From: Dehalococcoidia bacterium
GTDB taxonomy: Bacteria; Chloroflexota; Dehalococcoidia; DSTF01; JACRBR01
Length of the DNA: 35,046 nucleotides
Reading direction: 5' to 3'
Assembly (NCBI GenBank): GCA_041494685.1
Contig: JBGQBE010000033.1
Coordinates: 1 to 35,046 of the forward strand
A program made the position numbers and the translations under genes. This document shows, one piece after another, positions 10,179-35,046 of this stretch (position 1 is the stretch's first letter; each line of letters begins with the position of its first letter). The notes under the pieces were generated by a model that did no database searches, was not told the DNA's origin, and saw only the letters and a list, made by a program, of their open reading frames with translations.

Positions 10179-11402
10179 ATGCTAAAGCGACACACGGCCT
10201 CTGCCCGTTCCCGATCACGCAGGACGTTCCGAGTATTGGCGGCGCTTGCCGCGGTCGCGCTGACGCTGCTCACCATGGGCAGCACCGTGCGCGCCGGGGC
10301 GCCGCCCAACCTGCCAAGCAACGTGCAACTGGAGCAGTGGGAGACGAAACCTGCCGGCAACTGGATCACCGGAAGTCTCAACGCCAACAACTCGGATTAC
10401 ATCGAGGGGCAGGTCGTGCCGTTTCGCCTCGTGATCCCGTCGAACATCGACGCCGGCTCGTACGGCTTCTCCGTCTGCCGCAATTACGAAGACGGCGAAC
10501 GCCGCGGATATCTCTTCCACGCGCCATTCAACACCGACCGAGCGGCCGATCCCGGCGGAACGATCGTCTCGACGCAGGATGGCTTTTCGGCGGTCAACGC
10601 AACGCTGGTGTCCGTGACGGACGTCGGCGGGCGGGGCGACTGCAAGGCGGGCGACCGCCAGGAGATCGTGTCCATCGAGAAGAACGCCGGCGCGGCGTAC
10701 GTGCTCTGGGGCGGCCACCTGGCCGCGCCTGACGATCCCGGCGTGGGCGCAGGCAACAGCGCCGCATTCTGGCCGGGCGCCAGCCTCCACATGAAGCTCA
10801 TGTCGCCATCCAAGGACGTCGCGATCCAGACGTGCACCGGGCTTGCCACTCCGACGCCAGGGATCACCTCAACCGCGGTGATCACCCCGCCCGCGACAAA
10901 CACGTCCGTCCCGCCGACGCACACCACGACGCCGCCTCCTTCGACCGATACACCAGTCGCGGCGACCGCCACGCAGCCACCCACGTCTACCAGCACGCCG
11001 GTGCCGCCCGCGACCGATACGCCGATACCGCCCGCGACCGAGACGCCGGCACCCGGAAACACTCCGACCGCCGCCGCGGCATCCGCAACGCCGGTGAACA
11101 CGGCGACGGCGACGCAGATCCCTTCCGGGTCGCAGACCACGAATACACCCGCTGCTGTCAGGACGCCGACGCCCACGTCCACCAGCGCGGCGGCGACGGC
11201 CACCCGCATCTCGGAGCAGGCGGCGGCCGGCATGCAGCCGCGCCAGCTTCCGAGCACCGGCACCTGCTCAACGGCGCCCGACGCCGGCACGCCGTGGCTG
11301 CCGCTCACGCTCGTGCTCGCCGCCCTCGTGATCGCCGGTACCGGCGCCGGGTTCTGGTTCGCCCAGCGCCGCAACGGCGGAAGTCCCGACGCTCACGCGT
11401 GA
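10179..11402 (+). CDS. Cell-surface protein: signal peptide, beta-rich domain, Pro/Thr linker, LPxTG sorting signal
   Basis: N-terminal signal ending TVRA; long P/T-rich linker; LPSTG followed by a hydrophobic TM and an RR tail. Start uncertain (10134 or 10179). Confidence 0.75.
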   Translation: MLKRHTASARSRSRRTFRVLAALAAVALTLLTMGSTVRAGAPPNLPSNVQLEQWETKPAGNWITGSLNANNSDYIEGQVVPFRLVIPSNIDAGSYGFSVCRNYEDGERRGYLFHAPFNTDRAADPGGTIVSTQDGFSAVNATLVSVTDVGGRGDCKAGDRQEIVSIEKNAGAAYVLWGGHLAAPDDPGVGAGNSAAFWPGASLHMKLMSPSKDVAIQTCTGLATPTPGITSTAVITPPATNTSVPPTHTTTPPPSTDTPVAATATQPPTSTSTPVPPATDTPIPPATETPAPGNTPTAAAASATPVNTATATQIPSGSQTTNTPAAVRTPTPTSTSAAATATRISEQAAAGMQPRQLPSTGTCSTAPDAGTPWLPLTLVLAALVIAGTGAGFWFAQRRNGGSPDAHA

Positions 11403-25935: not shown

Positions 25936-27141
25936 CTAGCGAGCGGGCGCGAGGTGCAGCTTTCGGCGCAGCCGGCCGGCTCGGTGAGCGAGAGCAATCC
26001 GGTCGGCACCTTCCGCGCGTATCAATAGCGCGCTCGTGACCTCCTCGGCGGCGTGGAGATCACGAGCGTGATGCTCGAAGTGCTTCGCCAGTTCGAGCCC
26101 TGCGTCGCGGTCGCCCTGCGCCCAGAGCTGATGCCACAGGGCGACCGCCTCCTCCCGCTGCCCTGCCCGCTTGCAGAGCGTGGCGTGGCGCGGCGCCGCC
26201 CAGTCCCAGTCGTCGCCCCCGGCGAGCCACGGCAGCGCCGCACGATACAGCGGCATGGCGCGCGGCGGCTCGCCCGCGTGCTCCCACCAGCGCGCGACGG
26301 CGGCCGCATCGTCCGGGTCAAGGTCGTCGCGCGAGAGCAGGCGGGCCAGCGACGCCAGCACGCCGACGAGCGACAGCACGTCCTCCGCGTTATGTCGCAT
26401 CACGCCGCGCAACGGGCTGGCGCGTCCGGCGCGCAGGTAGTCGAAGTAGAGTTGCGGGATCAGCCAGCCCGGCACATCGTCCGCGCGCTCCAGGCCCAGC
26501 AGGCGGCGCTCCACCTCCGCCAGACGGCAGCCGTTGATCCGGTGCCGGTAGAGCCGCCGCACGGGCTGGAGCAGGTCGAAGTGCGCCATGCCGGCATACG
26601 GCGAGCGGAGCCGCGCCAGCGTCAGGCGCGCCTCAACGCAGGGCACGTCGAAGGCGCGGCCGTTGTACGTGACGACGCCCTCGAATCGCGCCAGATCCCC
26701 GGCGAGCATCGCCAGCATGGCGCGCTCCTGCGCGAGGTCCGCCAGGAAGTACTGGCGCACGCGGAAGCCGTCTGGCTCGAACGAGCCGAGCCCCGCCAGC
26801 ACGACGTACGTGCCGGCGCCGCCGGAGAGTCCGGTCGTCTCGATGTCGAAGAACGCGAGCCGCGAGGCGTGTGGGGCGGCCGGTGCGCCGAGCAGCCGCG
26901 CCAGCTCCGTCTCCGGTACGTCGAGTGCGCTGCCGAGCGCCACCGCCCCGTGCGCGTGGTCGAGCGGATGCCACTGGTCGCGCACGAAGACGGGGCCGTG
27001 CGGCGTCTCGTGCCAGTCCCCGCGCAGGATCTCAGCGATGGGCGGCGCCTCGCGCGGGAGCGGCGGCGCCGGAGGTCGCACGAGGGCGTGCTGCGCCACG
27101 GCGTGGCGGAGGCGATCGCGGAGCGCGGTGTCGGTGGCCAT
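25936..27141 (-). CDS. YprB/MrfB-like DEDDh (RNase H-like) exonuclease with helical TPR-like C-terminus
   Basis: FFDIETTG, TYNGRAFD, HFDLL, L.EVE..LLG.ER.DDVPG and HNAED; adjacent to the DUF1998 helicase. Confidence 0.88.
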   Translation of the reverse strand: MATDTALRDRLRHAVAQHALVRPPAPPLPREAPPIAEILRGDWHETPHGPVFVRDQWHPLDHAHGAVALGSALDVPETELARLLGAPAAPHASRLAFFDIETTGLSGGAGTYVVLAGLGSFEPDGFRVRQYFLADLAQERAMLAMLAGDLARFEGVVTYNGRAFDVPCVEARLTLARLRSPYAGMAHFDLLQPVRRLYRHRINGCRLAEVERRLLGLERADDVPGWLIPQLYFDYLRAGRASPLRGVMRHNAEDVLSLVGVLASLARLLSRDDLDPDDAAAVARWWEHAGEPPRAMPLYRAALPWLAGGDDWDWAAPRHATLCKRAGQREEAVALWHQLWAQGDRDAGLELAKHFEHHARDLHAAEEVTSALLIRAEGADRIALAHRAGRLRRKLHLAPAR

Positions 27142-27145
27142 GGCG

Positions 27146-29458
27146 TCAGGCCCGCGCCAGCGGCTCCGCAGCGATGCCGCCGGCTGGCGAGAGTGTGCGA
27201 TCGTGGTCGCAGAGGCGGCGGAGCAGCAGCACGGCGGCGCGCTTGTTGGTGCCATGCTCGCCGATCGACGGGCCGACGCAGCCGGGGCAGCCGCCGCGGC
27301 AGGCGCAACGCTCCACCAGCTCCAGCGCGGCGTGCATCAGGCGGCCGTGGATCTCGAACAGCCGGCGCGCCATGCCGACGCCGCCCGGCTGGTTCTCGTA
27401 CAGGAAGAGCGTGGGGCGCTCCGTGAACGGCGAGCGCACTTGGGCCACGGCCTGGAGGTCGCGCGGGTCGCACATGAGGAAGATGGGCGCCAGGTTGCGC
27501 AGCGTGTGCGCCATGCCCCAGAGGCCGTCCTGCAGTTCGGCGCGGCCCAGGCCTTCGGTGGCCTCCGGCTCCAGCGCCAGCCAGTAGGACGTCGTGTGGC
27601 GGCTCTCCTCCGGGATGTTGATGCGCCCCCAGCCGACGTTCTCGTTCGTGTCCAGCTTGATCTTCTTGAAGATCGTCGCCACGTCGCGGACGGCGACCTC
27701 GCCGTGGTCCACCTCGCAGGCGGGCGCGGGGGCGCGCTCGAACGACTCCAGCACCTCCAGGTCGACGGCCAGGTTCGCATCGGTGTAGTAGTCCACGTCG
27801 ACGCGACGGACGTACGCCTTCTTCTCGTGCCAGTCCAGGCGGTCGACGTGGTACTGCTGGCCGCCGTGCATGTAGATCGCCTCGTCGTGGATGAGCAGCG
27901 GCGCGGCGGGACGGTCCACCTCGCCGATGACGCGGGGCTTCGGCCCCTGCTCGATGACGACGAAGTTGTCGATTGCGGCGCAGCGCAGGCTGACGGACTC
28001 GGCCGGGAACACCTCGGTCATCCAGTGGTAGCGGCCGCCGGCCTTCACGAGGACGCCCTCGTCGGCCAGCATCTCCAGGAGCTCGTGCGAGTCCGGGCCG
28101 TACTCCTCGCGCTCCTCGAACGGCAGCTCGAAGGCGGCGCACTTCATGTGGCTGATGCGCACCAGCAGGTTATCGGGGTCGACCAGGCCGGCTTCCGGCG
28201 ACGTCTCGAACAGGTACTCCGGGTGCGTGGCCACGTACTGGTTCAGCGGCGACGACGACGCCACGACGCAGGCGAAGGCGAGCCCGTGGCGGCGACCGGC
28301 GCGGCCCATCTGCTGCCAGGCGCTGGCAAGCGTACCGGGGTAGCCGGTCAGCACCGCCGCGTCCAGGCCGCCGATATCGACGCCGAGCTCGAGCGCGTTC
28401 GTGGCCACGACGCCACGGATGCGCCCGTCGCGCAGGCCGCGCTCGACGGCACGGCGCTCGTTAGGCAGGTAGCCGCCACGGTAGCCTTCCACCTTCGGCG
28501 GCTCGCCGACGCGCTGCTTCAGCGCCTCGCGCAGATAGCGAAGCAGCAACTCGACGCGCACGCGGGACGGTGCGAAGACGATGGTCTGGACGCCGGCCTG
28601 CAACAGCTTCGCGCCGATGGCGCGCGACGCATTCACGCTGCTCTGGCGGATGCCCAACTCCTGGTTCACGACGGGCGGGTTGTAGACGGCCACGACCTTC
28701 CGCCCGCGCGGCGCGCCGTTGTCGTCGACGAGTGCGACCGGCGAGCGGACGATGTTCTCCGCCAGCTCGCGCGGGTTGGCGATGGTGGCGGAGCAGCAGA
28801 TGAAGACGGGGTCGGAGCCGTAGAAGCGGCAGACGCGCCGGAGGCGGCGGATGACGTTGGCGACGTGACTGCCGAACACGCCGCGGTACTGGTGCAGCTC
28901 ATCGATGACGACGTAGCGCAGGTTCTCGAACAGCTTCACCCACTTGGTGTGGTGGGGCAGGATCGCCGTGTGGAGCATGTCCGGGTTCGTGACGACGACG
29001 TGGCCGGCCTCGCGCACCTTACGGCGGGCGTCGCCGGGGGTGTCGCCGTCATACGTGAACGTGCGGATCTCGGCGTGCAGGTCGCCGATCAGCCCGTGCA
29101 GCTCCTGCATCTGGTCCTGGGCCAGCGCCTTCGTGGGGAACAGGTAGAGGGCGCGCGCCTCGGGATCGTCCAGGATCGTCTGCACGACCGGCAGGTTGTA
29201 GCAGAGCGTCTTGCCGGAGGCCGTGGGGGTGACCACCACGACGCTCTGGCGCTGCATGACGGCCGAGAACGCCTGGGCCTGGTGGGTGTAGAGCTGGTCG
29301 ATGCCCCGCCCCGCCAGCGCGGCCACGAGGCGCGGATCGGCGCTCAGCGGCCAGGCGCCGTGGCGGGCCGGCAGCTCCGGCAGCTCGCGCCATTCGGCAA
29401 AGCCGCCCACCAGGTCGGGGTCGGTGCGCAACGCGTGCAGGGCGTCTTCCAGCGACAT
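27146..29458 (-). CDS. YprA/MrfA (SftH/Hrq1-family) SF2 helicase with DUF1998 Zn domain
   Basis: TPTASGKTLCYNLP, FPTKALAQDQ, DELH, SATIANP, TNALELGVDIG, QQMGRAGR and C-terminal CACRGGCPGC. Confidence 0.93.
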   Translation of the reverse strand: MSLEDALHALRTDPDLVGGFAEWRELPELPARHGAWPLSADPRLVAALAGRGIDQLYTHQAQAFSAVMQRQSVVVVTPTASGKTLCYNLPVVQTILDDPEARALYLFPTKALAQDQMQELHGLIGDLHAEIRTFTYDGDTPGDARRKVREAGHVVVTNPDMLHTAILPHHTKWVKLFENLRYVVIDELHQYRGVFGSHVANVIRRLRRVCRFYGSDPVFICCSATIANPRELAENIVRSPVALVDDNGAPRGRKVVAVYNPPVVNQELGIRQSSVNASRAIGAKLLQAGVQTIVFAPSRVRVELLLRYLREALKQRVGEPPKVEGYRGGYLPNERRAVERGLRDGRIRGVVATNALELGVDIGGLDAAVLTGYPGTLASAWQQMGRAGRRHGLAFACVVASSSPLNQYVATHPEYLFETSPEAGLVDPDNLLVRISHMKCAAFELPFEEREEYGPDSHELLEMLADEGVLVKAGGRYHWMTEVFPAESVSLRCAAIDNFVVIEQGPKPRVIGEVDRPAAPLLIHDEAIYMHGGQQYHVDRLDWHEKKAYVRRVDVDYYTDANLAVDLEVLESFERAPAPACEVDHGEVAVRDVATIFKKIKLDTNENVGWGRINIPEESRHTTSYWLALEPEATEGLGRAELQDGLWGMAHTLRNLAPIFLMCDPRDLQAVAQVRSPFTERPTLFLYENQPGGVGMARRLFEIHGRLMHAALELVERCACRGGCPGCVGPSIGEHGTNKRAAVLLLRRLCDHDRTLSPAGGIAAEPLARA

Positions 29459-29473
29459 CCTTGCCCTCCGTAT

Positions 29474-29487
29474 CGAACAACCGTACG
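29474..29487. promoter_or_regulatory. Putative LexA box (one mismatch) CGAAC-AACC-GTACG
   Basis: GAAC-N4-GTAC in the 5' UTR of the helicase gene. Confidence 0.55.
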
Positions 29488-29494
29488 AAACAGA

Positions 29495-29523
29495 AGTATA
29501 GGATTAGAACGGAGGTTCGTCAA
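29495..29523 (-). promoter_or_regulatory. Sigma70 promoter TTGACG-N17-TATACT for the mrfA-like operon
   Basis: Near-consensus hexamers with optimal 17-nt spacing. Confidence 0.8.
29506..29519. promoter_or_regulatory. LexA (SOS/DinR) box AGAAC-GGAG-GTTCG
   Basis: Perfect GAAC-N4-GTTC in the promoter spacer, touching the -35 of a DNA repair operon. Confidence 0.78.
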
Positions 29524-29588
29524 CGGGCGATCTGCCGAACGCAGAACGTTATGTGGAGTACGCCAGCCGGTTTTGTGTTATCTGGGCG

Positions 29589-32570
29589 CTACGCTGCGGC
29601 CTGTGCCGTCGTGGAGACCTCGGCCGTAATGGAGACGGCGTTGTCGAAGCGGCTGACCGACACGTAGCCGCCGAAGGCGTCGATAGCGAACTCTGCCTCT
29701 TTCAGCGGCGCGCCGTCGAACGGCGTGCCGTCGGTCTCGGACATGATGCTGAGCATCAGAAAGCCATCGGACTGCTTGAGCGAGCCTGATGCCTTCGAGG
29801 CGCCGGAGGCGCGGAGCGACCCCAGCGACAAGGTGATGAGCGCCTGCACGGCAGCACGGAGCGCCGGAGGCAGGTCCACGCCGCCTTCGTCCAGTTCGAT
29901 CGCCAGGCTCACGTCCATGGTGCCTGCGTAGAAGCCCCGGAGCGCTTCGATCGCGCCCGCGAGGTCGTCCGCCTCGTCCTGAGCGGGCGCAACGAACACA
30001 ACGGCGGCTGGCTCTTCTTCCGGCTTCGGATTGAACGTGCGCACGACCGGCGGAGCCAGCGGATCAGAGTCCTCAGCTTCGTCGTCCGCCTCGGACTCGG
30101 CGTCAGCTTCGGCGGCCGAGTCCGCGGCGCCGTCGTCTTCGGCGAGCGTGAACGTCTGGACGCCGACCGGCGGCACGGGAGCATCGCCAGCTTCGTCATC
30201 AGCACCAGCCACAGACTCGAGGTCGTCGAGCGGCTCGTCATCTTCGAGGTTCAACGCGATGTCGGGCGAGTACTCCGCTATCGGCGGCGCGGGCACCTCC
30301 GCCGTGACCGTCACCCGCGCGTCGCTCCGGCTGATGGCGACGAAGCCGGCAAACGCTTCGACGGCGAGGGTACTAGCAGCGACGTCGGAGCGGTCGAAGC
30401 GGCCGCTCGCCTTCTCGGAGGTGATCCCCGTGATGCGCAGCACAAGGAAATCGCCGTCGCGCTGGAGGGAGATCTCGCACTCCTCCGCCCCGGCGCCCTG
30501 CAGGCCGCGGGCCGCTTCCATCGCAAGGCGATAGAGCACGAGCCGCATGGCCGGGTCGATGCTGGAGCGGCCGGCGGAGGCGCCGATCGAGTCGGTCGTG
30601 GAGTCGATGTCGAGCGTGAAGTCCATCTCGCCCGCGAAGTTCTTGCGCAGGGCGCGCAGGGCTCCCGGCAGGCCGAGCCGGACGAGGCCGGGGTGCAACT
30701 CTTGGCCGATCGCCCGCAGCTCGTGGTCGCGGATCGCTTCCAACTCGGCAAGCACGTGCCGGTGCAGGTTCTGCGCTGCTTCGGCATCGACGGCGACAAG
30801 CTTGTACGCCTCGTCCATCTGTGTCGCGGCGATCAGCAGGCGCGCCTGGACCGTCTCGCGCAGACGTTCGGACAGCCGGGCGTTCCGCTCTTCATACGCT
30901 TCGATCAGGGTCAGCGCGTCGATATCCGGCGGCGGGGGCGCCGGGTGCGCCAACCGTGCGACAGGCGGAGCCATCGGCTCCGCAGCGATCCTGGGCTCGG
31001 CTTCGAGCTCGGGCTCGGGTTCCAAGGCGTGCGCGGGCGCCTGCGCGGAAGCTTCGACCTCCGCCGCCGCGGGGGGCTCATCAACCTCGCTCGCATCGGC
31101 TGCGGGCTCGGCCGAGCGAAACCCGCCCACTGGTCGCAGGCCCAGCTTCAGCATCACAGCGCCCAGCGCGATCGCGAGCACCACGGCGGCGATGGTGACG
31201 AGGCTTTGCTTGCCCATCGCCTGGTTGCTCTCGGCCTGGATGATCGACCAAGGGAGGCACGACGCCACGTTCAGCCCGTGGTCGATCGGGGAATCCTTGC
31301 CGATCGGCGCGAGACCGCAGATTGAATCTGTACCGGCGATATCGGCACGGATGCCGCCGTTGTCGACGGTCGCGCCGCGCCACGGATGGCCGAGGAGGGC
31401 GGCGGGCACACCGGCGGCGAACTGGCCGTTGCTGTTGATGATCACGTTGGTGCTTCCGTCCACCGAGGCAGCCAGCGTGGGCTTCCAGACGCGTGCAGGG
31501 TCGGCGCGGCCGATGAGGATGCCCCAGGCGGACCCGCTCGGGTCGCGGAGCGGCGTGGCGAACTCGATGTAGCCGGGCTTGCCGAGCTCCGGCAGAATGA
31601 TGTCGGAGTTCGCCGGTGACAGATTCGAGCGTGTGGAAACGAAGGTGGGGCTGTTCTGGACGCTCGTCACGGCAGGATCGGTGGTCGCGAGCACGAGTCC
31701 AGACCAGTCGACGATCGCCAGGGAGGCGAGCCGGTTGGTGTTGAGGTACAGCAGCTGCGTCATCGCGTCAAGCCGCGCGGACTGGCGGGCGTTCTTGTCG
31801 TGGACGGTCGGGTCGTTCGCGTAGCGCAGCATCTCGATGTAGCCGTCGAAGGCATCGCCCGTGCCGAGGGTGGCACTGTGCTGCGCGAACGAGGCCGCCT
31901 CGTTGACGGCACGTCGGTCGGCGGCGCGCTCGCTGAACTGCCGCGCGCCGTAGTAGGTGATGCCGGCCAGCAGCACCGCCACGATGATGACGGCGTTGAT
32001 CGCGGCGATCAGCGGCGAGGACCACAGGCGCGCGACGAGGTCGGGCGCGGTCGACGTACCGGGACTCGCCGCGGGCGTAGGCGACGGATCGCCGCTGAAG
32101 ACGGGGCGCAAGCGTGCCCGCAGCGAACTGAGCGCCTGGGCGGCGCGAACGCTGATGCGTCGCATCGCCGCACCTGCTGGAAGCTTCAGAGACGGAGCAG
32201 GAGCCGCCAGCACGGCGTCCGGCGCTGCCGCAGACTCGGTAGCGGCTTCATGGTCCGCTGCCGCTTCGTCGCTACCGGACGCGGCGCGGCGGGGCCGAAG
32301 CGATCCGATGCGGGCGAAGAGACGAGCGCTGATGCTCCGCAAGGAGATCCATGCCCCGGCAAGAGCCCGTGCGGCCCCCGGCTCAGACGGCGCCGCAGGC
32401 ACGTCAGCCGGCTCGGCAGCTTCGAAAGGGCGCGGATTGCGACGCGGCAGCTTCAGGGCAACCTTGGGCAACCCGAAACGCTTGCGGGTTCGACCGTCGC
32501 CGTTCTGCGACTGCTCGGGTGCTGTCCTTGCTCCCATATCGCCGTGTCTATGGTCGGTGCTGGCACCCAT
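29589..32570 (-). CDS. Membrane sensor pseudo-histidine kinase: 2 TM, Cache-like sensor, degenerate HisKA_3, two degenerate HATPase-like domains
   Basis: TM helices flank a Cache-like region (LAIVDWSGLVLATTD, IEFATPLRDPSGSAWGILIG, IINSNGQ); 'ELRAIGQELHPGLVRLGLPGAL' and 'LVLYRLAMEA' resemble NarX-type kinases; catalytic boxes are missing. Start uncertain. Confidence 0.72.
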   Translation of the reverse strand: MGASTDHRHGDMGARTAPEQSQNGDGRTRKRFGLPKVALKLPRRNPRPFEAAEPADVPAAPSEPGAARALAGAWISLRSISARLFARIGSLRPRRAASGSDEAAADHEAATESAAAPDAVLAAPAPSLKLPAGAAMRRISVRAAQALSSLRARLRPVFSGDPSPTPAASPGTSTAPDLVARLWSSPLIAAINAVIIVAVLLAGITYYGARQFSERAADRRAVNEAASFAQHSATLGTGDAFDGYIEMLRYANDPTVHDKNARQSARLDAMTQLLYLNTNRLASLAIVDWSGLVLATTDPAVTSVQNSPTFVSTRSNLSPANSDIILPELGKPGYIEFATPLRDPSGSAWGILIGRADPARVWKPTLAASVDGSTNVIINSNGQFAAGVPAALLGHPWRGATVDNGGIRADIAGTDSICGLAPIGKDSPIDHGLNVASCLPWSIIQAESNQAMGKQSLVTIAAVVLAIALGAVMLKLGLRPVGGFRSAEPAADASEVDEPPAAAEVEASAQAPAHALEPEPELEAEPRIAAEPMAPPVARLAHPAPPPPDIDALTLIEAYEERNARLSERLRETVQARLLIAATQMDEAYKLVAVDAEAAQNLHRHVLAELEAIRDHELRAIGQELHPGLVRLGLPGALRALRKNFAGEMDFTLDIDSTTDSIGASAGRSSIDPAMRLVLYRLAMEAARGLQGAGAEECEISLQRDGDFLVLRITGITSEKASGRFDRSDVAASTLAVEAFAGFVAISRSDARVTVTAEVPAPPIAEYSPDIALNLEDDEPLDDLESVAGADDEAGDAPVPPVGVQTFTLAEDDGAADSAAEADAESEADDEAEDSDPLAPPVVRTFNPKPEEEPAAVVFVAPAQDEADDLAGAIEALRGFYAGTMDVSLAIELDEGGVDLPPALRAAVQALITLSLGSLRASGASKASGSLKQSDGFLMLSIMSETDGTPFDGAPLKEAEFAIDAFGGYVSVSRFDNAVSITAEVSTTAQAAA

Positions 32571-32685
32571 GCGGCGGCAGGGGCAGAACCCCTATTTTCA
32601 GGTTCACGAGACGGCCAGGTGCGTGCGCGTCCGCGTGGCGCGGGGCGCGGACCGGGATCTGGAGCGAACGACGGGGAACTTACAA

Positions 32686-33396
32686 CTATGCGGCGCGGCG
32701 GCCGCGGGGTGCGTCTCCAGGGTCGGCGTCGCCGGAGCCCATGGTCTCCTGCAGGTACAGCAGGACGGCCTTTACGCGAGGGTGGGCCGCATTGTCGCGG
32801 CTCAGGTTCAGCTGCCCGAAGATGGCGTTGATGTGGTTCTCGACGGACTTCTCCTCGAGCACGAGCGACCGGGCGATGGCGGCGTTGTTGTAGCCCTTGG
32901 CCATCAGCGACAGCACTTCAAGCTGACGCTTGGTGAGCGCGGACAGCCGCGTCTCGCGGCGGCCGAGGCTCTCGACGACCAGCGGATCCAGCACCACGAG
33001 GCCCATCGCGGCGCCGTCGATGGCGCGGACGAGCGTGGCGACGTCCGTGACGGACTGGCGCAACAGATACGACCAGCCCGCGGCACGGAAGGCCGGCAGT
33101 GCGGCGAGCGTGCGGCGGTCCGGGTGCTCGCCCAGGAAGACGATGCGCGTGCTGGAGCGCGATCCGGAGATCGCCTGCGCCACGGCGAGGGCATTCTGCT
33201 CGTTCTCGGCATCGAGCCCGACGAGAGCGACGTCGGGCTTCTCCGCGCCGGCGATGCGGATCGCCTCGGCGGCGTCGCCGGTCGCGCCGGCCACCGCGAG
33301 GCCCGGCTGGGCGGCCAGCACGGTGCCCAGCATGTCGCGCAAGAGGCTGTCAGCCTCCACGACCAGGATGTTGATGCGGTTTTGTGAATCAGTCAT
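32686..33396 (-). CDS. NarL/LuxR-family response regulator with atypical receiver domain
   Basis: REC-like N-terminus (ILVVEADSLLRDML, PDVALVGL) and LuxR HTH (LTKRQLEVLSLMAKGYNNAAIARSL...VENHINAIFGQL). Confidence 0.9.
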   Translation of the reverse strand: MTDSQNRINILVVEADSLLRDMLGTVLAAQPGLAVAGATGDAAEAIRIAGAEKPDVALVGLDAENEQNALAVAQAISGSRSSTRIVFLGEHPDRRTLAALPAFRAAGWSYLLRQSVTDVATLVRAIDGAAMGLVVLDPLVVESLGRRETRLSALTKRQLEVLSLMAKGYNNAAIARSLVLEEKSVENHINAIFGQLNLSRDNAAHPRVKAVLLYLQETMGSGDADPGDAPRGRRAA

Positions 33397-33621
33397 ACCT
33401 ACGCCTTCGATTGTCGGCCGGCGCGGCATGCCGGACATACGGGAGTCCGCTGATTCTGCACCAGGGGATGCGAGCTGTGATGTTGCGCGTGGAGCGACCG
33501 CGATCCGAGGGCGGCGTACGGCAAACGCCTAGGAGAACCATAGATCTTGAGGGTGCGCCGCAGATTCGCGCTGGGTGCGGACACCCGGCCAAGTCGGGTG
33601 AACGCACCGTGCGAGAGAACC

Positions 33622-33636
33622 CCTAGGGAAACGAAC
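33622..33636. promoter_or_regulatory. Candidate operator/promoter motif CCTAGG-N3-ACGAAC, copy 1
   Basis: The same spaced motif recurs at 34459-34473 upstream of the second archaellin; a related CCTAGGAGAACC is at 33528. Confidence 0.4.
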
Positions 33637-33737
33637 ACCTATCCGTAAGGAACACGCCGGAACAAAAGCGGGCAGACGGGCGGTCCGCAGAGGCGGGAGA
33701 CGCCGGGCGATGAAGCACCCGGCAAGGAGGAGCGGTC

Positions 33738-34319
33738 ATGAAGCGGATCAGGGAATTCATCCGGAGGGTGCGGGAAGAGCGTGGGATCACAGGCCTGGAG
33801 ACGGCTATCGTCCTGATCGCCTTCGTGGTGGTCGCGGCGGTCTTCGCCTTCGTCGTGCTTAGCACCGGTCTCTTCAGCGCCGAGCGGAGCAAGGAGACAG
33901 TGTACGCCGGTCTGGCGAAGACCCGAGGCTCGATGGAGCTGACAGGCGGCGTGATCGCCGACTCGAACACGACCAAGATCCTGAACGTCAAGTTCGACCT
34001 GACGCTGGCGGCCGGCGGCGACGCGGTCAACCTGAACCCGCTGGACCCGTCGAACCGGACGGTGATCTCGTACATCGACAACAACTACGTGAACAGGAAC
34101 ATCGACTACACCACAACGGTGGTCACGGGGAACGCGGACAGCCTGCTGGAGCAGGGTGAGATGATCGAAGTCACGGTGGACTTCACCGCAGACCCCAGCA
34201 TCGTTATCACGACGAACAAGAACTTCACGCTGGAAGTGAAGCCGCCGTCGGGCTCGTACATGGTGATCCAGCGGACGACGCCGGCCTCCATCGGGCAGAG
34301 CGTGCTCGACCTCAACTAA
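33738..34319 (+). CDS. arlB: Archaellin (archaeal-type flagellin, ArlB/FlaB)
   Basis: Class III signal peptide REERG|ITGLETAIVLIAFVVVAAVFAFVVLSTG; C-terminal DSLLEQGE, FTLEVKPPSGS and terminal 'VLDLN' typical of archaellins; SD AGGAGG. Confidence 0.9.
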   Translation: MKRIREFIRRVREERGITGLETAIVLIAFVVVAAVFAFVVLSTGLFSAERSKETVYAGLAKTRGSMELTGGVIADSNTTKILNVKFDLTLAAGGDAVNLNPLDPSNRTVISYIDNNYVNRNIDYTTTVVTGNADSLLEQGEMIEVTVDFTADPSIVITTNKNFTLEVKPPSGSYMVIQRTTPASIGQSVLDLN

Positions 34320-34378
34320 GGCTTCATCGCACGGAGGGGGCAGGGACGCCGCCTCCGACTCCCTACAAGCATGTTTTC

Positions 34379-34422
34379 AGGCACAGACACCCGCTCCGGA
34401 ACCGGAGCGGGTGTCTGTGCCT
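34379..34422. repeat. Perfect 21-bp inverted repeat between the archaellin genes
   Basis: AGGCACAGACACCCGCTCCGG-AA-CCGGAGCGGGTGTCTGTGCCT. Confidence 0.85.
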
Positions 34423-34458
34423 AGAAGGGATCGGGGGCGCTCACCGTGCTCGTAATCA

Positions 34459-34473
34459 CCTAGGCGCACGAAC
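34459..34473. promoter_or_regulatory. Candidate operator/promoter motif CCTAGG-N3-ACGAAC, copy 2
   Basis: Matches 33622-33636; sits inside a CACCTA-N13-TAGGTG dyad (34457-34481). Confidence 0.4.
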
Positions 34474-34728
34474 CTTAGGTGGTACACGGAGGTATCGGGA
34501 TTCCCCCGCATGGAGTCGCGCAGTTCTGGTCCCCGGGCGTGGTCGCTTTCGGGTGTCAGACGACCGGGAAACGGCGGAGTAGCGCGACCAGGCCTGAGAG
34601 CTACACGGACAGGCTTCACGCGCTTCATGCGAAGGAGGTGGCACGCAGGGCAACGTACCGTTCCGGAGGGAGGCCTCACCCTGAAACAGTGAGGCGGGGA
34701 GTATCCAACCGATTCTGGAGGAACAACG

Positions 34729-35046
34729 ATGAAGCGCATCATGCAATTCGTGCGCAAGGCGCGCGAGGAGCGCGGTATCACCGGCCTGGAGACGGCCATC
34801 GTCCTGATCGCCTTCGTGGTGGTCGCGGCGGTGTTCGCCTTCGTGGTCTTGAGCACTGGTCTCTTCAGCTCAGAGCGAGGCAAGGAGACCGTCTACGCGG
34901 GTCTGGCGAAGACCCGTGGCTCGATGGAGCTGACGGGCGGCGTCATCGCCAAGGGCAACACGACGAAGCTGAACACCGTCATGTTCGACCTGACGCTGGC
35001 CGCCGGCGGCGACCAGGTCAACCTGGACAACTCGAACGCGACCAAC
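34729..35046 (+). CDS. arlB: Second archaellin (ArlB/FlaB), truncated by the window end
   Basis: Manual translation MKRIMQFVRKAREERG|ITGLETAIVLIAFVVVAAVFAFVVLSTGLFSSERGKETVYAGLAKTRGSMELTGGVIAKGNTTKLNTVMFDLTLAAGGDQVNLDNSNATN; SD GGAGG. Confidence 0.9.
   Translation, partial: MKRIMQFVRKAREERGITGLETAIVLIAFVVVAAVFAFVVLSTGLFSSERGKETVYAGLAKTRGSMELTGGVIAKGNTTKLNTVMFDLTLAAGGDQVNLDNSNATN

Follow-up and report, generated by a model that had tools for sequence, protein, structure and literature searches.

Sensor kinases such as DesK, VraS and DosS all pair with regulators of the NarL type. DivL and RetS act by contact, within networks of active kinases and phosphorylatable receivers. The archaellum of archaea is regulated by EarA, ArnR/ArnR1 and ArnA/B, and bacterial flagella by feedback pairs, as FleQ-FleN and FliA-FlgM, in which the antagonists fleN and flgM lie inside their own regulon. 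Here the end of a contig from a Dehalococcoidia bacterium (JBGQBE010000033.1, 35,046 nucleotides; called C33 and, being the whole stretch analysed, the window) is described, where the genes of a pseudo-histidine-kinase (pHK) and of a regulator lacking the phospho-acceptor Asp (pRR) lie beside archaellin genes. The source genome (G000) consists of 87 contigs and measures 3.29 Mb. Four genes of interest fill the last 5.5 kb of the window:

29589-32570, minus strand: open reading frame (ORF) of pHK, 993 codons.
32686-33438, minus strand: ORF of pRR, 250 codons.
33738-34319, plus strand: arlB1, a complete archaellin gene (Pfam Arch_flagellin PF01917, E 1.7e-27).
34729-35046, plus strand: arlB2, an archaellin gene truncated by the contig end (PF01917, E 2.7e-20).

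The archaellin domain, with the N-terminus of a class III signal peptide, identifies ArlB, and the model TIGR02537 scores above its cut-off.

Bacterial archaella were shown to be functional only in 2025. The Chloroflexota loci reported in the main text of Sivabalasarma et al. 2025 (PMC12488501), and in that on SAR202 isolates (PMC10444878), are clusters of the same kind, featuring tandem arlB genes, arlF, arlG and arlJ, with arlH-arlI either inside or apart. In the main text of PMC12488501 the terms 'two-component', 'histidine kinase', 'response regulator', 'Cache' and 'transcription' occur 0 times each, as does 'regulator' in the main text of PMC10444878. In a preprint on coupling to chemosensory systems, the treatment, in the passages covered, is confined to a CheY-like protein of L. 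aerophila (129 aa). A search of main texts, including archaellum combined with response regulator or pseudokinase, returned no transcription regulator of a bacterial archaellum. Pseudo-receivers are presented in the available sections of a 2025 review (PMC12632262) as proteins the activation mechanisms of which are a mystery, almost all studied cases being orphans.

The pair shares with DesK-DesR, VraS-VraR and DosS-DosR the DHp and CA fold, a regulator that aligns end to end, and, in pRR, an intact GerE helix-turn-helix (HTH). In contrast to these systems, phospho-His, ATP boxes and phospho-Asp are missing, the receiver Thr and Lys are replaced, pHK escapes the Pfam models HisKA_3 and HATPase_c, and the genes are usually convergent rather than arranged in an operon. 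The pseudo-receiver regulators covered in the same sections of PMC12632262 act independently of phosphorylation, and likewise join a receiver-like domain without catalytic residues to a DNA-binding output; pRR differs from them as it usually resides beside a dead kinase-like gene, and is tied to a horizontally acquired archaeal machine. DivL (4q20) and RetS-GacS (7n0e) are among the structural matches of pHK, and retain the kinase fold as a binding module. Here, in contrast, both presumed partners are predicted from sequence to be dead, and the output is a transcription factor. Only circuit logic is shared with EarA/Arn, FleQ-FleN and FliA-FlgM, that is a dedicated regulator of filament genes and possibly an antagonist encoded in the regulon, the protein families being unrelated. 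The novelty of the locus is a predicted pseudo-receiver regulator which, together with a pseudo-kinase and a defined putative operator, is attached to a bacterial archaellum.

Both proteins are degenerate, synteny with arl genes is observed in related genomes, and a palindromic box is conserved in sequence and position. It is proposed, with even weight given for and against, that pRR is the phosphorylation-independent master of a small archaellum regulon that includes pHK, and that pHK feeds back on it by contact.

The pHK gene and its domains are arranged as follows:

29589-32537, minus strand: pHK gene from the likely start Met12 (ATG 32537-32535), 982 aa; the ORF is open to 32570.
31191-31958, minus strand: periplasmic dCache-type sensor domain, between two membrane helices.
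30261-30938, minus strand: DHp and first CA-like domain, with Arg571 (codon 30858-30860) at the phospho-His position; N, G1 and G2 boxes absent.
29595-29963, minus strand: second, C-terminal CA-like domain, a duplicate of the DHp end and CA, joined by an acidic linker of ~100 residues.

The start at Met12 is supported by a conserved N-terminal peptide, MGARxxPxxSQDGD, with variation at third codon positions. The pHK family, retrieved throughout at E <= 3.6e-108, is made up of 62 clusters at 90% identity, and source names and titles of related loci denote Chloroflexi/Chloroflexota, Chloroflexia or Dehalococcoidia metagenome-assembled genomes. No Pfam model matches the pHK of the window at E <= 0.1, HisKA_3 and HATPase_c being silent, and among 23 sequences derived from related loci HATPase_c was found in one, at E 0.15 only. 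The NCBIfam kinase model MctS matches residues 555-760 (E 2.1e-9). Sequence searches of the Protein Data Bank with pHK or the family profile gave nothing useful.

Structural models were more informative. The cytoplasmic part (mean predicted local distance difference test score, pLDDT, 85.8) folds as a DHp hairpin followed by a Bergerat-fold CA domain, and is matched by DesK in Foldseek (probability 1.0, E 3.5e-9). VIA-align superposes the CA domain of VraS with Z 15.7 and a root-mean-square deviation of 2.1 A over 123 residues, DesK with Z 14-15, and DosS with Z 13.9; the matches also include entries whose titles name DesK-DesR complexes. The model of the periplasmic part is of moderate quality (mean pLDDT 73.4). 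It shows the double PAS-like fold and long N-terminal helix of dCache_1, the best Foldseek matches being Mlp37, CtaA, PscC, KinD, PctA/B and DctB (probability 1.0, E from 2.2e-10), and PF02743 is precomputed in 18/62 homologues. The second membrane helix and DHp are connected by a linker of ~70 residues, rich in Pro, Ala and Glu, and variable in length.

Arg571 falls on the phospho-His by three routes: alignment of the family profile to 12 canonical HisKA_3 kinases encoded by the source genome (hhalign 97.3%, E 2.6e-11); alignment to the nearest real kinases outside the family (99.0%), in which the H box LHGxVQT[RK]LL pairs with LRExVQARLL; and the ranges given by VIA-align, where model residue 27 meets His188 of DesK. 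Arg is found at this position in 62/62 family members and in all 23 locus-derived sequences. No other His is invariant across the alignments of 62 and 23 sequences. His603 is kept in 61/62 sequences of alignment A1, and is Leu in 4/23 locus-derived sequences, the four of the g11 clade; the position of His626 reads H28/Y21/F13 among the 62. The N-box Asn is absent in 62/62, the five commonest residues at its position being A38/V7/G5/L4/S3. In the profile alignment with these 12 kinases, gaps and variable residues mark the G1 region, and a gap stands in place of G2. Since the three boxes are missing, pHK is not expected to bind ATP.

When 1.84 billion representatives were searched with the profile, the result was 47 proteins at E <= 1e-30, taken as the family itself. 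Beyond this threshold there is a continuous tail of real kinases (HATPase_c in 10/10 scanned), and the nearest outsiders being real kinases, pHK is viewed as a dead offshoot of the DesK/VraS/DosS class. The second CA-like stretch is matched by the A2 profile at E 1.6e-11, over profile positions 90-219; short forms of pHK in relatives (~620-700 aa) lack it. The ratio of nonsynonymous to synonymous substitution rates (dN/dS) of the DHp-CA module measures 0.16, 0.23 and 0.32 in close pairs. Only close pairs were used, as dS of distant pairs is saturated and biased by GC content at third codon positions (GC3), which inflates the DHp-CA median to 0.52.

The regulator gene is best delimited as follows:

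32686-33396, minus strand: pRR gene, NarL/LuxR-type, from the likely start Met15; the ORF is open to 33438.

Met15 (ATG 33396-33394), which gives a protein of 236 aa, was chosen because of a GAAGG sequence resembling a Shine-Dalgarno, and the aligned 5' ends of orthologous genes; the divergent spacer to arlB1 then measures 341 nt. The GerE domain (residues 167-213) scores 45.4 bits in Pfam against a cut-off of 23.5, and the HTH is intact. On the receiver part, Response_reg reaches 26.9 bits, under the cut-off of 30.2. MadR, NarL, MctR and NarP are the top NCBIfam models, all far under their own cut-offs. Residues 22-213 align end to end with VraR, DevR, NarL and DesR (E 1e-12 to 1e-9). In the VraR alignment (E 1.1e-12), Gly74 (codon 33217-33219) occupies the phospho-Asp position; moreover the acidic pair DD is changed to EA, Thr to Gly, and Lys to Arg. 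Gly is conserved at the site in 21/21 orthologues from related loci. In the same 21 sequences, the DNA-binding domain and the region read as the alpha4-beta5-alpha5 face of the receiver are almost wholly invariant. Asp76 stands two residues past that site; at least 90% of the regulators retain it, and locus L018 has Ser instead. Median dN/dS is 0.19, with dS compressed by GC3 bias. pRR accordingly qualifies as a pseudo-receiver protein, having a receiver-like domain that lacks the phospho-acceptor Asp and is kept under selection. The stretch LVLEEKSVENHINAIF is identical in 14/17 rows of an alignment spanning 38-100% overall identity, and probably holds the recognition helix. Evolutionary distances of pHK and pRR correlate (r 0.56 to 0.76), which reflects shared descent only and decides nothing.

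The observations of a first-pass annotation of the window are borne out by these data. It had recognized a NarL-type regulator and a Cache-type kinase-like gene next to archaellins, as now documented by the GerE score and by the dCache and DesK/VraS folds; the HTH, there called canonical, passes the Pfam cut-off, and the divergent spacer, given as about 340 nt, agrees with the length counted from Met15. The absence of phosphotransfer residues in both proteins is invariant (Arg 62/62, Gly 21/21), and these losses are conserved under purifying selection, dN/dS in close pairs being 0.16-0.32 for the kinase-like module, with a median of 0.19 for the regulator. Synteny with arl genes holds for both.

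The putative operator, called arl box, is a 14-bp palindrome, GGGTGC-NN-GCACCC, an operator with GGG...CCC half-sites that we take to resemble the DevR box. Relevant sites in the window are:

33573-33586: arl box 1 upstream of arlB1, GGGTGCGGACACCC.
33596-33609: arl box 2, GGGTGAACGCACCG, likewise upstream of arlB1 and 23 bp beyond box 1.
33610-33653, plus strand: block conserved 3' of the boxes in 14 aligned orthologous spacers, CCCCTAGGGAAACGAAC ... ATCCGTA, which may be a promoter or leader.
32555-32568: arl box upstream of pHK, reading CGGTGCTGGCACCC on the plus strand and ending 17 nt before the likely pHK start.

Two copies of GGGTG-N4-CACC(C), at a distance of 23 bp, form part of a block common to the 14 orthologous pRR-arlB1 spacers. 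When the upstream regions of the five arlB copies of the source genome were aligned no common block appeared; only orthologous spacers gave one. A scan of the whole genome with the pattern yielded 37 strand hits. In addition to the two arlB1 copies, these include a site at C19:34486, 153 nt before arlH, and the pHK box at 32555-32568, which lies inside an inverted segment described below. In 19 related loci, boxes occur at 3.9 per kb upstream of arlB1 (17/19 loci) and at 1.3 per kb upstream of pHK (13/19 loci, in the gap between the helicase gene and pHK; one more, in L023, is listed separately). Elsewhere in these loci the density is 0.12 per kb over 301 kb, and some such sites precede further arlB copies. 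The arlH box was predicted from the window and then checked on other contigs: exactly one box is found at -117 to -175 in 16/30 family f1 loci, and in each it is the sole one in a 3.7-kb stretch. The arlB1, arlH and pHK positions are conserved across genera. In many cases the pHK box, which precedes a conserved start codon, forms a perfect palindrome of 14 nt (GGGTGCTAGCACCC). A centre so often perfect is more in keeping with a protein dimer on duplex DNA than with a hairpin. Boxes are also present in the pRR-arlB spacer in 4/7 loci of types other than f1. No box was found upstream of arlH in G007 and G036, nor upstream of arlB1 in G007. C20, the contig of the prepilin-peptidase gene, has none. 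A scan of 32500-35046 for the sigma-70 consensus revealed no promoter, and no Rfam family matches the box region.

Other boxes of the source genome are found away from arl genes. A perfect one, GGGTGGCTGCACCC (C19:26192-26205), separates a gene for a 1404-aa PAS-GAF-GGDEF-HD protein (minus strand) from an APH-family gene (plus strand); boxes are also found in intergenic DNA before a gene for a subtilase (C1:129300) and one for an enoyl-CoA hydratase (C60:8198). About 10 nt upstream of the pHK box, 13 related loci also carry an inverted repeat, AGGGG-N5-CCCCT, preceded by AAATA (32569-32610, minus strand, in the window), which is a possible second operator or promoter element.

The distribution of the genes was analyzed in 93 genomes of the order, sorted into families f1 to f5. 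G000 is excluded from the f1 column, and G025 is counted in tallies only.

pHK module: 28/93 genomes in all; f1 27/35, f2 0/2, f3 0/18, f4 0/16, f5 0/21.
ArlJ: 68/93 in all; f1 30/35, f2 2/2, f3 17/18, f4 6/16, f5 12/21.
pRR-like regulator (E <= 1e-30): 43/93 in all; f1 29/35, f2 1/2, f3 12/18, f4 0/16, f5 0/21.

pHK is restricted to family f1 (0/57 genomes outside it), and the 28 genomes having the module (27 of f1, and G000) all encode ArlJ or ArlH. Families f2 and f3 and the genus g8 feature a homologue of the regulator (38-52% identity) which is divergent from arlB and heads a complete cluster, with neither pHK nor an adjacent kinase. The divergent pairing of regulator and arlB is older and wider (f1, f2, f3) than pHK. 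The phospho-Asp is kept in 4/6 regulators of f2 and f3 (Asn in 2) and the Lys in 5/6; in the two regulators from g8, Leu or Ile occupies the phospho-Asp site. Loss of Asp in pRR and gain of pHK coincide on one branch, and count as a single event, not as statistical support.

G026 is a special case. The arlB-to-arlJ cluster has been deleted down to a 25-codon archaellin stub (locus L042, C2 ~10476-10550). A gene at C2 4825-8808 joins the Cache and membrane region of pHK to ~980 unrelated residues, and the DHp-CA module is gone; the added part is without Pfam match, and does not resemble the kinase module. The label 'archaellum-less', considered for this genome, was wrong, as arlH, an orphan archaellin and the arlB stub are present.

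Relative to its neighbours, pHK is inverted in the window:

29525-32685: segment inverted with respect to related genomes, holding pHK, its own box and upstream region; breakpoints within 29459-29588 and 32569-32685.

By blastn against four related loci the flanks are collinear with the window, and the pHK segment is reversed in 4/4. Contigs of the Logan collection from three other sediment samples span both junctions in the orientation of the window, X4 (29376-30265) and X3 (29492-29954) at the left, X2 (31809-32793) and X3 (32203-32759) at the right. Being spanned in other samples, the inversion is real and fixed in the species, neither an assembly error nor a visible switch. No joint changing strand is listed among the Logan contigs, where low-depth odd joints at 90% likeness are also listed. 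Flanking inverted repeats were not seen at the breakpoints among the 25 longest of 86 pairs.

In the mechanism envisaged, pRR would be competent constitutively or through partners, not through phosphate. A pRR dimer would bind the arl box and set transcription of arlB1, arlH-arlI and pHK. The reading of the box by pRR is suggested by the divergent transcription of pRR and arlB1 in f1, f2, f3 and g8 loci; the sign of the effect, activation or repression, and the touch between pHK and pRR are likewise conjectural. The place of the pHK box, 17 nt ahead of the start codon, would suit repression of pHK, and the more distant boxes of arlB1 and arlH would suit activation. pHK, descended from a kinase class that pairs with NarL-type regulators, would have joined the archaellum locus in one family when the regulator lost its Asp. 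It would belong to the regulon, and is presumably unable to phosphorylate any target; the kinase fold is probably put to use as a tethered module for binding, classical transmembrane signalling being unlikely given the floppy linker. For this step the preferred, and tentative, account is that pHK binds pRR and closes a feedback loop. A bolder version, according to which the two form the first two-component pair where both partners gave up phosphotransfer and signal by contact, the pseudo-kinase, tethered to the membrane and binding a ligand through Cache, holding or releasing the Asp-less regulator in a reversible manner, is considered doubtful.

Several observations weigh against this scheme. 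In 16/17 loci having both genes, tblastn places pHK on the strand of arlB and convergent with pRR; in G011, the exception, it is pRR that is inverted, and it follows pHK after 33 nt. The co-orientation of the pair noted in the first-pass annotation is correct for the window, but fails as a conserved arrangement: with convergence in 16/17 loci, it is not a conserved operon. G003 and G021 have pHK at a distance from both pRR and the arl genes. Within the g11 clade, pHK moved along with the arl genes and is found directly before arlB, next to arlH-arlI, and the regulator remains beside the helicase gene; pHK is directly before arlB also in G007. pRR was not found in G007 (92% complete) and G036 (90% complete), though pHK persists. 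G026 keeps pRR and boxes despite the deleted cluster. The variable Pro/Ala/Glu linker makes a rigid signalling helix from Cache to DHp unlikely. The DHp-CA module evolves much faster than pRR, with mean p-distances of 0.54 and 0.20, respectively. In the window alone the box is not enriched, as 4 matches at <=2 mismatches were found against 4.9 expected, and the case for it is therefore built on its position and its conservation. A factor other than pRR could be the one that reads it. The earlier proposal that the pair controls the archaellum thus survives in part: boxes at arlB1, arlH and pHK fit it, but pRR-arlB units without pHK (f2, f3, g8) and pHK without a detected pRR (G007, G036) do not.

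It is possible, if unlikely, that pHK does not regulate pRR, and is rather an accessory of the archaellum itself, specific to bacteria and co-expressed with it (membrane scaffold, polar or envelope anchor, motor partner), the dead fold binding a protein and the Cache domain an envelope or external ligand. Such a role would suit the fact that in nearly all loci pHK immediately precedes arlB and shares its strand, its permanence with arl genes in the g11 clade and G007 without pRR at its side, and the flexible linkers, fit for a tether. A box shared with arlB1 and arlH would make an accessory a regulon member as well, and in G026 the DHp-CA module went lost together with the arlB-to-arlJ cluster. 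Yet archaellated members of f2 to f5 and g8 manage without pHK, the protein descends from kinases that pair with NarL-type regulators, its appearance coincides with the loss of Asp in pRR, and in G003 and G021 it is found away from arl genes.

That the palindrome is not the pRR operator is improbable. Another regulator would then read it, or it would work as an RNA or DNA structure in long leaders, the target of pRR being elsewhere or none nearby. The two arlB1 boxes can indeed pair as RNA (minimum free energy -72.9 kcal/mol, z -2.36, 4/200 shuffles folding as well), and one symmetric double change, AGGTG...CACCT, is seen in L013; but the single arlH and pHK boxes have a 2-nt centre and can form no stable hairpin, and Rfam has no matching family. 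Survival of pRR and boxes without the arl cluster in G026, and box-like sites at other intergenic places of the genome, also speak for this reading; on the other side, box and pRR travel together across f1 and f3, and G007 and G036, where pRR was not found, lack the arlH box. A pair whose signalling still proceeds by phosphorylation, using non-canonical residues (in pRR Asp76, in pHK a His other than the lost one) or other, intact partners, is very improbable. Asp76 and His603 are widely kept, and the 12 canonical HisKA_3 kinases of the genome could cross-talk; however, L018 has Ser for Asp76, the four g11-clade sequences have Leu for His603, ATP binding is not expected of a CA domain without N, G1 and G2 boxes, and the receiver Thr and Lys are replaced too.

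If pRR does command the regulon and pHK feeds back on it, the presence of pHK in the regulon would close a loop comparable to FleQ-FleN, and the locus would show bacteria wiring an archaeal organelle into their own control logic. It offers a concrete, testable circuit, with one regulator, one 14-bp operator and at least 3 promoters (arlB1, arlH-arlI, pHK). It would also be a rare case for how pseudo-receivers are controlled, the candidate partner being a catalytically dead relative of kinases. Relatives of f2 and f3, having the Asp and no pHK, make a natural before-and-after series.

The remaining archaellum genes of the source genome are split among contigs. C33 closes in the N-terminal half of arlB2, and C51 opens inside an archaellin C-terminus; the assembly broke inside the tandem archaellin genes, and the two contigs are probably adjacent. 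C51 continues with two more arlB genes, a gene for a 234-aa coiled-coil protein, arlF-like and arlG-like genes, and a 531-aa membrane protein, read as ArlJ because its orthologues sit after arlI in complete clusters. A 137-aa acidic protein and an Amidase_3 gene follow. A KaiC-like gene (read as arlH) and a T2SSE ATPase gene (read as arlI) reside on C19, apart from the cluster, and C27 carries an orphan archaellin. Given the arl genes of C33, C51, C19 and C27, pHK and pRR head a real, though split, archaellum system. The idea that pHK substitutes for a missing chemosensory system was dropped, as the genome has 2 MCP and 3 CheW-domain matches, one of the latter being a 688-aa frame taken for CheA; CheF was not found in the source genome.

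Some accompanying genes are recurrent. The Amidase_3 gene (N-acetylmuramoyl-L-alanine amidase, C51 5831-6847, L008) lies 3' of arlJ in clusters of f1, f2 and f3 type, and is a candidate wall-remodelling enzyme letting the archaellum pass the peptidoglycan. The coiled-coil protein (C51 2030-2734), whose gene separates the last arlB from arlF, is unmatched in Pfam at E 0.01, is kept in every cluster type seen, and may be a stand-in for ArlC/D/E or ArlX. Two small acidic proteins, of 137 aa after arlJ (C51 5410-5823) and of 132 aa after arlI (C19:37317-37715), are without Pfam match and share the C-terminal motif D-x-D-D-L-x-E-D-L-x-T-I-A-A-A; homologues occupy equivalent places in related loci. 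The left neighbours of pHK in most loci are an MrfA-like helicase gene, with DEAD, Helicase_C and MrfA Zn-binding domains by Pfam, and, upstream of it, a 439-codon ORF (25936-29458 in the window for both), the FDIETTG motif of which is, in our view, reminiscent of DnaQ-like exonucleases.

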